From: a virus | Taxonomy: Duplodnaviria > Caudoviricetes | DNA length: 64,000 nucleotides | Virus record (IMG/VR): IMGVR_UViG_3300030330_005258 | Coordinates: 90,578-154,577 of that record | Reading direction: 5' to 3' (one strand) | Shown here: piece after piece, positions 35,598 to 42,202 of the stretch | Layout: each line of letters starts with the position of its first letter | Position numbering within the stretch: the first letter of the stretch is position 1 | The notes under the pieces: model-generated | Seen by the model: the letters and a program-made list of their open reading frames with translations, nothing else | Database searches by the model: none | Told to the model about the DNA's origin: nothing | Position numbers and translations under genes: made by a program

Positions 35598-37598
35598 ATG
35601 GCACCTAAAAACCCAAAGCAAGGCAAGAACCCTGCAAACAGAGATTCGCAATTATTCAGATCTCTTACTCGACTGTTCTCTGGACCTATTATCAGCTATC
35701 GCTCCGAGTCTGGTCGAAAGATACGCAGACAACATCTTGATAAATATTCTACAAGATTTAAATCTGCGTCAGGGCAGCAATTTAAAAAACAGTCCTATAA
35801 CCCACTAGACACAATTGCGGCAAATGCAATCGCAAACCAACGCAGGTCCGAGCGTTATATTGACTTTGACCAGATGGAGTATATGCCCGAGCTAGCTTCT
35901 GCCCTTGACATCTACGCAGACGAGATGACAACATTCTCTTCTCTTTCTCCGATGCTCAACATCAGATGCCGCAACGATGAAATCAAGGCTGTTCTAGATA
36001 TTCTCTACCATAACGTGATGAACATTGAACACAACCTCTTTGGTTGGTGCCGCACAATGTGCAAGTACGGAGACTTCATTCTATATCTTGATATTGATGA
36101 CGAGATAGGTGTTCAGTCTACAATTGCCATACCACTGCAAGAGATTGAGAGATTAGAAGGTCTTGACGCCACAAATCCGAATTACATCCAGTATCAGTGG
36201 AATTCTGCTGGCATGACGTTTGAGAACTGGCAGATTGCTCACTTCCGCATTCTTGGTAACGACAAGTATTCTCCATACGGCACTTCTGTTCTTGAGCCTG
36301 CGCGTCGTATCTGGCGACAGCTTACCCTAATGGAAGACGCAATGATGGCTTATCGTATTGTTCGTTCATCCGAGCGTAAAGTATTCAAGATTGATGTTGG
36401 CGCCATTCCACCACAAGAAGTCGAACAATACATGCAGAAGATTGTTACCCAGTTGAAGCGTCACACAATTGTAGACAAGGACACTGGGCGCATCGACCTG
36501 CGCTACAACCCGCTCTCTATTGAAGAGGACTACTATATTCCTGTTCGTGCTGGCTCTGTGACTGATATTCAGAACCTCGGAGCAGGACAGAACACAACCG
36601 CGATTGACGACATCAAGTATCTTCGCGACAAGTTGTTCTCAGCTATCAAGATTCCACAAACCTACTTGACCATGGGCGAAGGCGCACAGGAAGATAAAAC
36701 TACCCTTGCTACTAAGGACATACGATTCGCTCGCACAATTCAGCGCCTACAGCGTTCAGTCCTACACGAGCTAGAAAAGATTGGAATTATTCATCTTTAT
36801 ACTCTCGGCTACAGAGGCGAAGATCTACTAAACTTCAAGCTGTCTCTCAACAACCCAAGTAAGATTGCTGAGTTGCAAGAGCTTGAACACTGGAAGACCA
36901 AGTTCGATATTGCTGCATCTGCAACTGAAGGCTATTTCTCACGTCGCTGGGTTGCTGACAATATCTTTGGCATGTCCCACGAAGAGTTCCTACGCAACCA
37001 GCGTGAGATGTTCTACGACCGCAAGCACGACACCGCACTTGAGGGTGTTGCTGAAGCTGCTGCCGCAGGCGGCGGCGAAGCTGGTGGTGGTGGACTTGAC
37101 CTCGGTGGCGACGAAGGTGGTGGCGGTCTTGATCTTGGTGGCGGTGACGAAGGTGGTGGAGAACTTGACCTCGGTGGAGACGAAGGCGGCGATGAAGGTG
37201 GTGGCGAAGACACCGCGCTTCTAGCAGCCCCTCCAGGCTCCCGTGACTCACCACGATTGGCACCATCACTCGGCAAGCGCGCGAGATCAGGTAAGAAATA
37301 TGTGACTAAGGGCTCTAAAGGCAAAGTTTATCAAAAGGTCGCAACAGACAAGAGACCATCCGGGGCAAGAACTCGCAACTACGCAAGTATCCCAACCCCC
37401 GAAATGAACACCTATCGGTCAAACAACCACGGTGCGTCAGAACTAAGATCACTCGCTAGGGGCATTTATGAAGAGCAAGACCCTAATTACTTGCGAGACC
37501 AAGAGGAAGAGCAATCTCTCCTTGAAGTTAACAGTTCAGTAAAGATGCTTATTGAGAGCCTAGAAACAAAGACTACGGAGAATGATAATGAAAAATAG
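35598..37598 (+). CDS. Portal protein (T4 gp20-like) with Gly/Asp-rich C-terminal extension
   Basis: LMEDAMMAYRIVRSSERKVFKIDVG, EDYYIPVR, DDIKYLRDKLFSAIKIP and DIRFARTIQRLQ are gp20 motifs. Confidence 0.93.
   Translation: MAPKNPKQGKNPANRDSQLFRSLTRLFSGPIISYRSESGRKIRRQHLDKYSTRFKSASGQQFKKQSYNPLDTIAANAIANQRRSERYIDFDQMEYMPELASALDIYADEMTTFSSLSPMLNIRCRNDEIKAVLDILYHNVMNIEHNLFGWCRTMCKYGDFILYLDIDDEIGVQSTIAIPLQEIERLEGLDATNPNYIQYQWNSAGMTFENWQIAHFRILGNDKYSPYGTSVLEPARRIWRQLTLMEDAMMAYRIVRSSERKVFKIDVGAIPPQEVEQYMQKIVTQLKRHTIVDKDTGRIDLRYNPLSIEEDYYIPVRAGSVTDIQNLGAGQNTTAIDDIKYLRDKLFSAIKIPQTYLTMGEGAQEDKTTLATKDIRFARTIQRLQRSVLHELEKIGIIHLYTLGYRGEDLLNFKLSLNNPSKIAELQELEHWKTKFDIAASATEGYFSRRWVADNIFGMSHEEFLRNQREMFYDRKHDTALEGVAEAAAAGGGEAGGGGLDLGGDEGGGGLDLGGGDEGGGELDLGGDEGGDEGGGEDTALLAAPPGSRDSPRLAPSLGKRARSGKKYVTKGSKGKVYQKVATDKRPSGARTRNYASIPTPEMNTYRSNNHGASELRSLARGIYEEQDPNYLRDQEEEQSLLEVNSSVKMLIESLETKTTENDNEK
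37068..37207 (+). repeat. Gly-rich tandem repeat (GGGG-LDL-GGDE) x3 in the portal C-terminus
   Basis: Three imperfect copies of GGTGGTGG(A/C)..CTTGA(C/T)CT(C/T)GGTGG..GACGAA. Confidence 0.85.
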
Positions 37599-38983: not shown

Positions 38984-39574
38984 ATGACAAAGAAAATGAA
39001 AGTTATAATGGAAAACTGGGACAGGTTTATATTGCAAGAAGAGTTTGAAGCTTGTGATACTCCATTTAAAGTTGGAGATATGTTAATTGGAGTTGATCTT
39101 GTAAAATACTTAGACGATGAAGCCTTATATCAGGATAGACAAGAGATAATAAATCGATCAGAATATAGACAGTATCTTAAAAAAGGAATACAAATAGGCA
39201 AAGCTATAAAGCCTTTTGCTAGTTTAGTGCTCGCATTGGATGGAGGGGCGACGGCTGCTACACTAGGAGCAGCCGATGCAGCCGGCGGATTTCTTGGTCA
39301 AATGTTTGCCCTTGGCTCTAAAAATGAAGGCGACAACAGATACACTGAATTTTTATCAACCTTTTGTGTTGATAATGAGACACTAGACTTAATTGAAGAT
39401 AAATTTCAACAACAATATGTAACACAGACAGATATTGTAGATAAACTACAAGATTACTTTAAAAATGCAAATCCCGAGTCTCCGCTTCCCGATATCACAG
39501 AACATCTAGTGGAATGGCTAAACACAAAATCTGCTTATGCAGGAAGTGAAGAAACAAAAATGGTGACAAAATGA
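38984..39574 (+). CDS. Cargo-type protein with MKVIMENW..F..QE leader and Gly/Ala hydrophobic hairpin
   Basis: AGGAG SD. Leader ends in LQE. LVLALDGGATAATLGAADAAGGFLG segment; AT-rich. Confidence 0.55.
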   Translation: MTKKMKVIMENWDRFILQEEFEACDTPFKVGDMLIGVDLVKYLDDEALYQDRQEIINRSEYRQYLKKGIQIGKAIKPFASLVLALDGGATAATLGAADAAGGFLGQMFALGSKNEGDNRYTEFLSTFCVDNETLDLIEDKFQQQYVTQTDIVDKLQDYFKNANPESPLPDITEHLVEWLNTKSAYAGSEETKMVTK

Positions 39575-39918
39575 TGGAATTATTATTATTTATACTTATA
39601 GCCTACGGGCTCACACAGATTTTGGTATACAGCGATATGCCAATAATCAAAAGACTGCGACCAGACAAAGAATCTTATAGAGGATACGGCAAAGTTTTCC
39701 ATTGCCCTATGTGTATGGGCTTCCACGTTGGTTGGTTTTTAGTCCTACTTTCTCCTTGGACTGAACTATTTACGTTTGACCCAACTTTTGTTAATGCCTT
39801 TATACTTGGTTGTCTTTCATCTGCGACTTCATATGTTCTCAATATGGTGTTCTCAGATGAAGGAATAATGATAAAGCATAATTACAAAAACGATAATTTT
39901 TTTATAGAGGAAGAATAA
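39571..39918 (+). CDS. DUF1360-like membrane protein (CxxC), C-terminus apparently displaced by an insertion
   Basis: Three hydrophobic helices; FHCPMCMGFHVG. Confidence 0.6.
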   Translation: MMELLLFILIAYGLTQILVYSDMPIIKRLRPDKESYRGYGKVFHCPMCMGFHVGWFLVLLSPWTELFTFDPTFVNAFILGCLSSATSYVLNMVFSDEGIMIKHNYKNDNFFIEEE

Positions 39919-40152
39919 ATGAAGATTACCAAAGCAAGACTAAAAGAAATCATTAAAGAAGAAATTGAAGCCGTTAAGGAAGGACCCCAACGCGCGTTCT
40001 GCATTGGCTACGAAAAAGATGGTGAAACAAAGCACCAGACTGTTCATGCTGACGCTCCCGGAATCGCCGAGAGAAAGATCAAGAGAGAGCACGATGTTCG
40101 TGATAGCGCAATCAAGAGCACAAAAGAAGGGAAGTGTAAAGGTCATGCATAA
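39919..40152 (+). CDS. MKITK-leader mini cargo protein flanked by 9-bp direct repeats
   Basis: GAGG SD; MKITKARLKEIIKEEIEAVKE. GCATAATTA at 39876-39884 and at 40147-40155. Confidence 0.65.
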   Translation: MKITKARLKEIIKEEIEAVKEGPQRAFCIGYEKDGETKHQTVHADAPGIAERKIKREHDVRDSAIKSTKEGKCKGHA

Positions 40153-40210
40153 TTATCTTATTGGAAAATGGGGACTACAACCAGTCCGCCGATGCTGCAA
40201 AGGCTCTTAG
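40145..40210 (+). pseudogene. Orphaned 3' end of the DUF1360-like gene (HNYLIGKWGLQPVRRCCKGS), or a 21-aa peptide
   Basis: Removing the DNA between the two GCATAATTA repeats fuses ...GIMIKHN in frame to YLIGKWGLQPVRRCCKGS*. Confidence 0.45.
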
Positions 40211-40243
40211 CTCGCGCGGGTAGCGCCCGCATAAGGAATACAA

Positions 40244-40501
40244 ATGAAACTTACCAGAACAAAACTAAAACAGATTATCAAAGAAGAACTAGACAGGGCT
40301 TCTGAAATTAAAGCTGAAAGAGTTGTTAACTTTATCAAAGATCACGGTGACACACACGCAGAACTTGTGCATCAAGATGATGGTTCTATGAAGATCAAGG
40401 TTGTAACAAAGATATATGATACCAACACTCGCAAGATGAGTTCAGAAGTTAATTATATTGAACCCACTATGCAAGCAGCAAGAGGAATATTGGAATACTA
40501 A
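40244..40501 (+). CDS. MKITK-leader mini cargo protein
   Basis: MKLTRTKLKQIIKEEL. Its RBS/start region is duplicated at the protease start. Confidence 0.65.
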   Translation: MKLTRTKLKQIIKEELDRASEIKAERVVNFIKDHGDTHAELVHQDDGSMKIKVVTKIYDTNTRKMSSEVNYIEPTMQAARGILEY

Positions 40502-40502
40502 A

Positions 40503-41102
40503 ATGAAACTACTAAGAGAATACTACGAACTATGTGAAGGTGGCGTATGCCAAGACCTTCTTACTGAAGACGAGAAACGTTTTGTCGCCGGCGGGGGCAT
40601 GATACTTTCTGGCAAGCTACAAGAAGCAGATGTCCAGAATGGTAATGGTCGTGTCTATCCTCACAAGGTTTTAATGAGAGAAGTCGAGAACTACAAGAAG
40701 CTTGTAAAAGAAAACAGAGCACTTGGTGAACTAGATCACCCCGACGATTCAGTTATCAACTTAAAGAACGCGTCACATATGGTTACGGCTATCTGGATGG
40801 AAGACAAAGCCGTTATGGGTAAGGTTAAAGTCCTCAACACTCCATCTGGACAAGTTCTCAAGTCTCTCGTAGAGTCAGGCGTCAAGCTTGGCATCTCTTC
40901 CCGAGGTATGGGATCTGTGTCGGAGGGCGGTGGCAATGTCGTTGTTCAAGAAGACTTTCAACTCATCTGCTTTGACTTTGTATCTGAGCCTTCAACTCCA
41001 AACGCTTTTATGATGAAAGAGGCAAAACAGTATAACAACAAAGTATTTACAAAAGCTGACCGAATTAACAGGCTACTAAATGAGGTATTAAAAGATGAGT
41101 GA
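40503..41102 (+). CDS. Prohead protease (T4 gp21-like)
   Basis: NGNGRVYP, GELDHP, TPSG, LGISSRG and FDFVSEPS. The ATG at 40503 has an RBS. Confidence 0.93.
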   Translation: MKLLREYYELCEGGVCQDLLTEDEKRFVAGGGMILSGKLQEADVQNGNGRVYPHKVLMREVENYKKLVKENRALGELDHPDDSVINLKNASHMVTAIWMEDKAVMGKVKVLNTPSGQVLKSLVESGVKLGISSRGMGSVSEGGGNVVVQEDFQLICFDFVSEPSTPNAFMMKEAKQYNNKVFTKADRINRLLNEVLKDE

Positions 41103-41953: not shown

Positions 41954-42202
41954 ATGAGTAGACGCAAGGGTGCGAATGTTGTGGTTACCGCAAGACAATG
42001 TAGAGGTAACCACGAGAAGATGATCCGCAAGTTCATCAAGAAATGTAAGAAAGAAAAAATTATTGAACAGATAAGAGAAAGAAGATATTACAAGAAGCCT
42101 TCCGATGTTAAACGTCATAAAAAGCAGGCTGCCATACGCCGACAGCGCCGAGACGTAGAAAAGCAAAAGAGACTGCAAGCCAAGCGTGAAAGAAATAGTT
42201 GA
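41954..42202 (+). CDS. rpsU: Phage-encoded 30S ribosomal protein bS21
   Basis: EKMIRKFIKKCKKE.II...RERRYYKKPS..KRHKK.AA.RR matches the bS21 pattern (ALRRFKR.C......E.R.R.FYEKP). Confidence 0.85.
   Translation: MSRRKGANVVVTARQCRGNHEKMIRKFIKKCKKEKIIEQIRERRYYKKPSDVKRHKKQAAIRRQRRDVEKQKRLQAKRERNS

Follow-up and report, generated by a model that had tools for sequence, protein, structure and literature searches.

The window analyzed here is a stretch of 64,000 nucleotides (positions 90,578 to 154,577 of IMG/VR virus record IMGVR_UViG_3300030330_005258; Caudoviricetes) and makes up the right-hand end of a phage genome of 154.6 kb. In it, a 77-codon gene, p77, lies directly behind p115, a gene for a small membrane protein, and is bracketed by two exact copies of a 9-bp sequence, GCATAATTA. 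The question raised by this locus is whether p77 arrived as a mobile cassette that duplicated its target and split the resident gene. An earlier note on this DNA had proposed exactly this: a unit of promoter, ribosome-binding site (RBS) and open reading frame (ORF) would have inserted into the 3' end of p115, duplicating the 9-bp target, cutting off an original end ...YLIGKWGLQPVRRCCKGS and supplying a new tail from its own 5' untranslated region (UTR). The comparison of related loci refutes this mechanism, confirms the polymorphism of the cassette and yields an unexpected result, a conserved and unannotated micro-gene beside the prohead protease gene. We consider the following reading likely as a whole: p115 is intact, the micro-gene follows it, and p77 is a swappable gene in a variable site, slot A, where genes are gained and lost by recombination.

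Two sets of loci were used. A p115 scan identified 296 IMG/VR relatives, of which 80 loci were fetched and compared; with the window included, they form the 81 loci on which the repeat and p77 counts are based, and slot states were counted in the 65 loci with the protease end on the contig. A degenerate DNA pattern for the micro-gene core retrieved at least 120 further viral contigs, of which 80 were fetched and 75 had enough flank. Slot A extends from p115 to the micro-gene and slot B from a hairpin to the protease gene; each holds 0-2 small genes. The features of the region are as follows.

39571..39918, plus strand: p115, small membrane-protein gene, distant DUF1360 relative, with invariant C45 and C48 (CPMC)
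39919..40152, plus strand: p77, accessory leader-cargo gene in slot A; MKITKARLKEIIKEEIE leader helix, then a small beta-beta-alpha-beta domain in which two Cys are invariant; the end reads KCKGHA-stop
40145..40210, plus strand: micro-gene of 21 codons, MHNYLIGKWGLQPVRRCCKGS and a stop; unannotated, with its own ATG, overlapping the p77 end by 8 nt
40216..40230, plus strand: GC-rich hairpin (GCGGGU / GCCCGC), directly 3' of the micro-gene
40244..40501, plus strand: p85, second leader-cargo gene, in slot B between hairpin and protease gene; absent from 29 of the 65 loci with the protease end on the contig
40503..41102, plus strand: T4 gp21-type prohead core serine protease gene (PF03420 Peptidase_S77, E 2.3e-29; phrog_207, E 3.3e-54)

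The p115 gene is whole

p115 is whole and is not split here. Its ending, HNYK.DNFF.EE(E) followed by a stop, is kept in 80/80 related loci, and the same ending is found in the 27 loci with both slots empty, where p115 and the protease gene are separated by 30-110 bp. Homologues of p115 form more than 1055 clusters with a length of ~113-115 aa, and 267 of 270 protein-cluster representatives have their own short tail and no KW.LQPVR extension, contrary to the split gene of the earlier note. The note had further taken the terminal residues KNDNFFIEEE for translated 5' UTR of the cassette. Since the tail is conserved in empty loci and the length of the homologues is constant, these residues are resident sequence; only the last 3-4 codons, which contain the Shine-Dalgarno (SD) sequence, co-vary with slot occupancy. 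The p115 protein ends in G-E-E(-E) in 26 of 29 distinct empty slot A junctions and in (T/I)-E-E(-E) in 12 of 16 filled ones (one I-K-E-E counted), and the last codons in the window, GAG GAA GAA, double as the RBS of the next gene.

Rare single-frame fusions of p115 and the micro-gene were detected in three of the 270 distant representatives (P0146, P0168 and P0244). They join a truncated p115 after SYVL and retain the internal Met of the micro-gene. P0146 (L239:202-573) rests on one contig, and locus L239 reads through the hairpin too; these may be true fusions or assembly variants.

PF07098 (DUF1360) was matched by 26 of 42 diverse members of the p115 family at E up to 1 (best 3.1e-5), and the window's own p115 had no Pfam match at E up to 0.1. 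Searches of Pfam and PHROGs gave no match for p115, the micro-gene, p77 or p85. The family profile of p115 found no match among PDB sequences, nor did tblastn of p115 and the micro-peptide against GenBank phages.

A 21-codon micro-gene beside the prohead protease gene

The peptide KWGLQPVRRCCKGS, regarded in the earlier note as the severed C-terminus of p115, is indeed encoded by a real and conserved coding sequence, but this belongs to a separate micro-gene and not to p115. The empty-site allele reads ATG AAC AAC TAC CTA ATC AGT AAG TGG GGC TTG CAG CCC GTC CGT CGT TGC TGT AAA GGC TCC TAA; at empty sites its ATG shares bases with the p115 stop (TGATG) and is preceded, 7 nt upstream, by a GGAG site. 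Among 45 distinct alleles, third codon positions are variable at 13 of 14 core codons. Pairwise codon differences in the micro-gene frame comprise 6188 synonymous versus 738 non-synonymous changes, a relation that is inverted in the other two frames (315/6049 and 838/5459, synonymous/non-synonymous). Switches between codon families that change two or three bases and preserve the residue were observed for Ser (TCN/AGY), Arg (CGN/AGA) and also Leu. Start, stop and frame are maintained in 69 + 80 loci. The micro-gene is located between p115 (upstream) and the protease gene (downstream) in 75/75 of the further contigs, and this position holds down to 36% p115 identity and 48% protease identity. 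These codon patterns argue strongly that the micro-gene codes for a protein in its own right and is subject to strong purifying selection, and it is better conserved than the adjacent protease across at least 120 viral contigs.

The predicted micro-peptide has 16-38 aa and a core of [KR]WxLQPVRxCCKG[SK]. In a divergent clade, C-K-[KS]-G-C replaces the CC core, and the two Cys are always kept. The gene is present in a single copy in the genome. An exact look-up of the micro-peptide in a collection of 15 billion proteins returned nothing, and no mention of the motif was found in the literature searched; the micro-gene is too short for gene callers and hence missing from protein collections.

An 81-codon ORF that a mechanical listing places at 39965-40210 is an artefact, namely the micro-gene frame staying open upstream through p77. 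A gene caller could miscall this ORF instead of the 21-codon gene.

The alternative that survives best accepts translation of the 21 codons and assigns them a regulatory role, as a leader peptide or coupling ORF in which a pause at the W...P...RR stretch may set the ribosomes for the protease gene or the formation of the hairpin. Conservation of W and P is a typical trait of arrest peptides. The start of the ORF overlaps the upstream stop, its own stop lies 2-11 nt before the protease start in most compact lineages, the K-G codons (AAAGG/AAGGG) form the protease SD site in compact lineages, and a hairpin stands 3' of the ORF in the window's clade. We nevertheless regard this role as unlikely, as the peptide is equally conserved in many loci that have one or two slot B genes before the protease gene, the retention of two Cys despite the change in spacing (CC versus CxxxC) points to peptide chemistry, and the rare fusions to p115 suggest a protein partner.

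In a second alternative, 40145-40230 would be a non-coding element of RNA or DNA, for instance a processing site, a terminator or a site of recombination, with an incidental open frame; this is very improbable. The segment adjoins a conserved hairpin with compensatory changes and its peptide is absent from protein databases, yet the variation falls on third codon positions (13/14), the Ser, Arg and Leu codon-family switches keep the residue, and frame, start and stop are kept in ~150 loci. Rfam gave no match at 39500-40600, and no significant fold was predicted for the coding part by itself. In the hairpin, six pairs are conserved in 12 loci, two with compensatory changes, and a T-run follows it in many relatives. 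Its predicted fold (-14.1 kcal/mol; z -0.7) is unexceptional alone, and it is single copy in the genome.

The three rare fusions, the translational coupling and the presence of two conserved Cys in each protein suggest that p115 and the micro-protein work together. Our best guess is that they act in membrane-associated prohead initiation or in the control of the protease. A complex prediction for a p115 homologue, a natural 38-aa variant of the micro-gene product (from locus L163) and zinc gave a score of 0.02, which speaks neither for nor against such a pairing.

p77 and the two variable slots

p77 occupies slot A in only 6 of the 81 loci. Its family comprises 25 homologue clusters versus more than 1055 for p115, and its members occur in three contexts: slot A (the window, L236), slot B (L238) and, in L084 and L233, a distal array where leader genes adjoin a dCMP deaminase gene. 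The structural model of p77 has an N-terminal helix (residues 5-19) of low confidence and a compact domain (residues 25-70) with a predicted local distance difference test score (pLDDT) of ~90. A Foldseek search of the model against the PDB gave no match at E up to 0.001. Small ribosomal proteins were considered as fold relatives and rejected, the best Foldseek E of 0.19 being taken as chance for a 50-residue fold.

The occupancy of the two slots, given as (A,B) gene numbers, was (0,0) in 27 loci, (1,1) in 19, (0,1) in 15, (1,0) in 2, (0,2) in 1 and (2,1) in 1. On a tree built from p115 and protease DNA, slot states are patchy among near-identical flanks, and the empty state occurs in all clades. 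Both slots are empty in L056-L058 and three genes are present in L060 (two in slot A, of 161 and 81 aa, and one of 83 aa in slot B), with flank branch lengths of 0-0.04; as the flanks are nearly identical, the turnover must be very recent. The empty locus L028 is sister to the filled L015 and L026, and the window's own clade (support 98/98) mixes the states A77, A0 and A237. p77 itself is confined to a few tips close to the window. This distribution marks p77 as a derived, inserted accessory gene of a small sub-lineage.

The junctions of p77 are the stop and start codons of its neighbours, with a spacer of at most ~10 nt across junctions, and translational coupling is therefore kept. In the alignment with empty sites, the left junction falls on the p115 stop (39918) or no more than ~12 nt ahead of it, whereas the left 9-mer already ends at 39884. 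The insert consists of the single 77-codon ORF, with no transposase or recombinase. No terminal inverted repeats were found at the junctions; the best candidates, 74-91% complementary over 11-19 nt, lie elsewhere.

The opposite polarity, in which p77 would be ancestral at this position and repeatedly lost, is even less probable than the non-coding element. Losses do occur, and the L028 site resembles a deletion product. However, the TGATG overlap of p115 stop and micro-gene start is the state in nearly all distant clades and is ancestral for that reason; the 25 p77 clusters against more than 1055 for p115, the three genomic contexts and the restriction to tips near the window also speak against an ancestral p77.

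Origin of the 9-bp repeat

The two copies of the repeat map as follows.

39876..39884, plus strand: left GCATAATTA copy; K-H-N-Y codons inside p115, 35 nt upstream of the true cassette junction
40147..40155, plus strand: right GCATAATTA copy; p77 end (GCA TAA) overlapping micro-gene codons 1-4 (ATG CAT AAT TAT)

As letters, the repeat and the frame restoration described in the earlier note hold. The sequence is exact at both positions, flanking the 77-aa ORF (39919-40152), with no third copy on either strand of the window, and removal of the 271 bp between the copies joins two open frames, fusing that of p115 to ...HNYLIGKWGLQPVRRCCKGS and a stop. This in-frame restoration is automatic because both copies read in that phase. 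Exact direct 9-mer pairs spaced 50-400 bp apart number 334 in the window versus 115 in block-wise shuffles. The geometry tested, with one 9-mer copy at most 60 nt upstream of the start and the other at most 20 nt from the stop, occurs in 2.4% of random 234-nt intervals, so that ~1.4 cases are expected among 59 genes; it was observed at two of the 59, p77 and p85. The GCATAATTA pair is not above chance, and its arrangement is a coincidence.

The two copies have separate coding causes, each happening to spell H-N-Y. The left copy is present in 30 of the 81 loci regardless of p77, most of which lack p77, and other loci carry synonymous variants such as GCACAACTA. The right copy is limited to six loci with p77 cargo: the window, L001, L003, L004, L013 and L002 (where the cargo is inside a fusion). 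The p77 family ends in K-C-K-G-H-A-stop, and in slot A its last codons, CAT GCA TAA, both supply and overlap the micro-gene ATG; outside p77-bearing loci, the micro-gene starts with ATG AAC AAC TAY. In slot B of L238, the p77 family member ends in CAC GCA TAA, directly abutting the protease ATG. An old duplication of the p115 tail behind the shared H-N-Y was also considered and dropped, there being no likeness between the two sequences in distant clades.

The least credible account is therefore that of the earlier note: for all its exact 9-mer at both places, its in-frame join across a 271-bp deletion and the p115-micro fusions in one frame in 3/270 distant representatives, the supposedly new tail is conserved in all 80 loci, empty sites included; empty sites have the p115 stop and then an ATG-initiated micro-gene in another frame, and keep both the 34 nt ascribed to the cassette and the two repeat positions (K-H-N-Y codons, M-N-N-Y start); the left copy is present in 30/81 loci, the majority of which have no p77; the rare fusions join elsewhere (after SYVL), with the internal Met retained and one on a single contig; and such repeats occur at the chance base rate.

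Gain, loss and exchange of cassettes

With p115 intact and p77 as a swappable gene, the cassettes are most likely gained, lost and exchanged by phage recombination, not by transposition. Two routes are envisaged. One would be homologous exchange via the conserved flanks, i.e., p115, the ~100-bp island of micro-gene plus hairpin, and the protease gene; the other would consist of short-homology events at the sites of translation initiation (SD, stop, ATGAA) and inside the sequence coding for the leader. The combination of the two is the mechanism with the best support but falls short of proof, since function by itself would produce SD and ATGAA repeats.

The empty site of L028 equals L008 minus the cassette between two GGAATAA copies; like the AAATGAAACT copies around p85 and the co-variation of the last p115 codons with slot A occupancy, this is a footprint pointing to recombination. 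In slot B, p85 is paired with different slot A genes, and vice versa, which implies either exchange inside the ~100-bp island or independent gains. A ~155-aa domain, X, stands between leader and p77 cargo in L002 (4349-5062), between leader and p85 cargo in L013 (4675-5403), and alone behind an MKITK or an MKTLIENW leader (L023:4349-4804, L019/L025 slot A), with the other leader type in L023. Judged from their sequences, these arrangements represent in-frame shuffling of domains and leaders, with apparent breakpoints at the acidic end of the leader. In P0141 (124 aa, p77 family), an in-frame insertion of ~47 residues between leader and cargo is flanked by a repeated EELEN, a recombination footprint within the leader end.

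The earlier note had also likened the 9-bp repeat to a late-promoter box and suggested recombination at such boxes. The box, ACTATTTA, is enriched, with 13 copies in the window (1064-55473), all on the plus strand, versus 2.7 expected; sites include 18126, 23876, 33424, 42204, 44364, 46623, 48846, 51890, 52753 and 55466. Most copies lie 8-80 nt upstream of gene starts, which makes ACTATTTA a candidate late-promoter box. One copy (39765-39772) is located inside p115, in the codons of the conserved WTELFTF, ~150 nt upstream of p77; the box is at neither junction, and promoter-box recombination is thus unsupported here. TATAAATA showed no enrichment, sigma-70-like promoter matches numbered six versus 5.2 expected, with none at the junctions, and terminator-like sites were at chance level. 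The cassettes carry no promoter of their own. What stands of the proposed insertion is what looks like a unit of RBS plus ORF with no transposase nearby; the promoter and the split gene do not.

Leaders and cargos

Two leader types, MKITKxRLKQIIKEELE and MKLLIENWxKF, are found on unrelated cargos. The genome has 8 type-1 and 3 type-2 leader genes, and slots A and B hold dozens of different cargos. The leaders of p85 and p77 are 79% identical over 52 nt, the longest direct repeat in the region, and p85 is flanked by AAATGAAACT at 40242 and 40501. p77 has L-K-E and I-K-E within residues 8-14, read from the sequence as motif presence alone.

By analogy with the T4 internal proteins, the leader would be a capsid-targeting propeptide that the protease cleaves off at an (I/L)-x-E site. 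The cargos may be packaged and injected accessory proteins. The S77 protease encoded next door and the modelling of the leader as a separate N-terminal helix are in favour of this view. Among the highly diverse internal proteins of T4, the capsid-targeting sequence is the sole conserved part (PMC3012670), and T4 gp21 removes N-terminal propeptides by cutting after Glu (PMC5694885).

The second leader type, in the form MK(L/V)(L/I)(I/M)ENWxxF, heads unrelated proteins, including p196 of the head operon (window 38984-39574), and its genes stand in tandem arrays with MKITK-type genes (genome C1:33745 and C1:35335; L084:709-2514). The N-terminus of the protease, MKLLREYYE, resembles this leader type.

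Genome setting

The locus belongs to the operon of head genes in an uncultured marine T4-like myophage. The fixed members of this operon are, in order, the portal gene, three unknown genes, p115, a micro-gene of 16-38 codons, in this clade the hairpin, and the gp21-type prohead protease gene. Nearly all genes of the window are on the plus strand, and their order is terminase, portal, three unknown genes, p115, p77, a 91-nt stretch, p85 and protease. The 91-nt stretch between p77 and p85 was left empty in the gene listing, and the protease gene is the fixed right border of the variable region. The portal gene was assigned as follows.

35598-37598: T4 gp20-type portal (PF07230, E 1.9e-75)

No member of the clade has been cultured. 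Among sequenced phages, Flavobacterium phage immuto comes closest, with a protease identity of 42%; it shares the gene order from portal to protease and lacks both p115 and the micro-gene. A homologue of ribosomal protein bS21 (PF01165) is encoded three genes 3' of the protease gene (window 41954-42202), a position conserved in the clade, and is also present at L238:2201-2449 and L239:2227-2475.

Comparison with known systems

In its working, the locus resembles the hyperplastic regions and internal-protein loci of T4-type phages. As with the T4 internal proteins (IPI, IPII, IPIII and Alt), unrelated small cargos share a short N-terminal leader with (I/L)-x-E sites, a gp21-type (S77) prohead protease is encoded alongside, and the gene set varies between close relatives. 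In contrast to T4, the leader is longer (~17 aa), has another sequence and comes in two types, and the cassettes are located both in distal arrays and inside the head operon, where they are translationally coupled beside the protease gene. The sequences are not similar to those of the T4 internal proteins, and packaging, cleavage and an anti-defence role are putative here.

The promoter-early stem-loop (PeSL) describes modular shuffling in the hyperplastic regions of T4-type phages (Arbiol et al. 2010, PMC2839356; Comeau et al. 2014, PMC4122927). The present locus shares with it ORFans whose presence varies among close relatives at fixed 'acceptable' sites, conserved short stretches next to ORFs as proposed recombination substrates, and a stem-loop that borders one slot. 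However, the island here is a coding micro-gene with one hairpin, in place of a repeated ~100-bp promoter-terminator motif. Hairpin and micro-gene island are single copy in the 154.6-kb genome with up to three mismatches allowed, the one hairpin is on one side only, and promoter matches are at chance. The repeated candidate for a recombination substrate is instead the leader coding sequence with the SD/start region. The PeSL model was rejected for this locus, which has no repeated promoter-stem-loop motif.

With a transposon that duplicates its target site, the locus has in common a short exact direct repeat around a gene absent in relatives. It differs in that the left repeat is set 35 nt into the resident gene, the repeat also occurs where the insert is missing, and there are neither terminal inverted repeats nor a transposase. 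This model was rejected as well: a repeat directly at both ends of the insert, empty sites with one repeat position in place of two, and a transposase or inverted repeats were all lacking.

In T4, the small genes 67 and 68 of the prohead core lie between gene 20 (portal) and gene 21 (protease). Small genes lie between portal and protease here too, with no sequence similarity for p115, the micro-gene, p77 or p85 in Pfam and PHROGs. We know of no described T4 counterpart of the 16-38-aa Cys-Cys peptide. Assembly of T4 heads nucleates on the inner membrane (PMC5694885), and a head operon that encodes a membrane protein such as p115 would fit with this.

Discussion

Several points weigh against our reading of the locus. 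The micro-peptide is absent from protein collections, so its translation is deduced from conservation alone, and with its K-G codons doubling as the protease SD site in compact lineages, that conservation could be partly regulatory. The leaders are 77-90% identical over 48 nt with mostly synonymous differences, and homologous recombination between leaders would need short identical stretches. Junction repeats of the SD and ATGAA kind, being expected from function, are weak evidence of mechanism, and at the true p77 junctions ATG(AA) is all that is shared. That p77 is cleaved and packaged is a prediction by analogy.

A broader picture can be offered tentatively. The peptide could be an unrecognised, near-universal head-assembly factor of a large and abundant clade of uncultured marine T4-like phages, partnering the DUF1360-like membrane protein. 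The two Cys residues of each might together build a metal or disulfide site on the cytoplasmic side of the membrane, and the pair might start prohead assembly there or gate the adjacent protease. The island would then be a fixed anchor between two slots that load the capsid with interchangeable leader-tagged proteins. We hold this picture to be possible, and doubtful in its entirety.

A transposon-like footprint that splits a gene would, if true, have implied a new mechanism for mobile elements in phages, and ruling it out saves follow-up work. The locus provides a concrete case of an overlooked micro-protein gene in the core head module of an abundant group of ocean phages. Its two-slot layout is a natural experiment in which T4-like phages swap leader-tagged genes without promoters, transposases or repeated regulatory motifs, and through it the T4 internal-protein and PeSL pictures reach uncultured marine lineages. 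Should the leader be a capsid-targeting signal, its cargos would constitute a catalogue of candidate injected proteins, e.g., for counter-defence.

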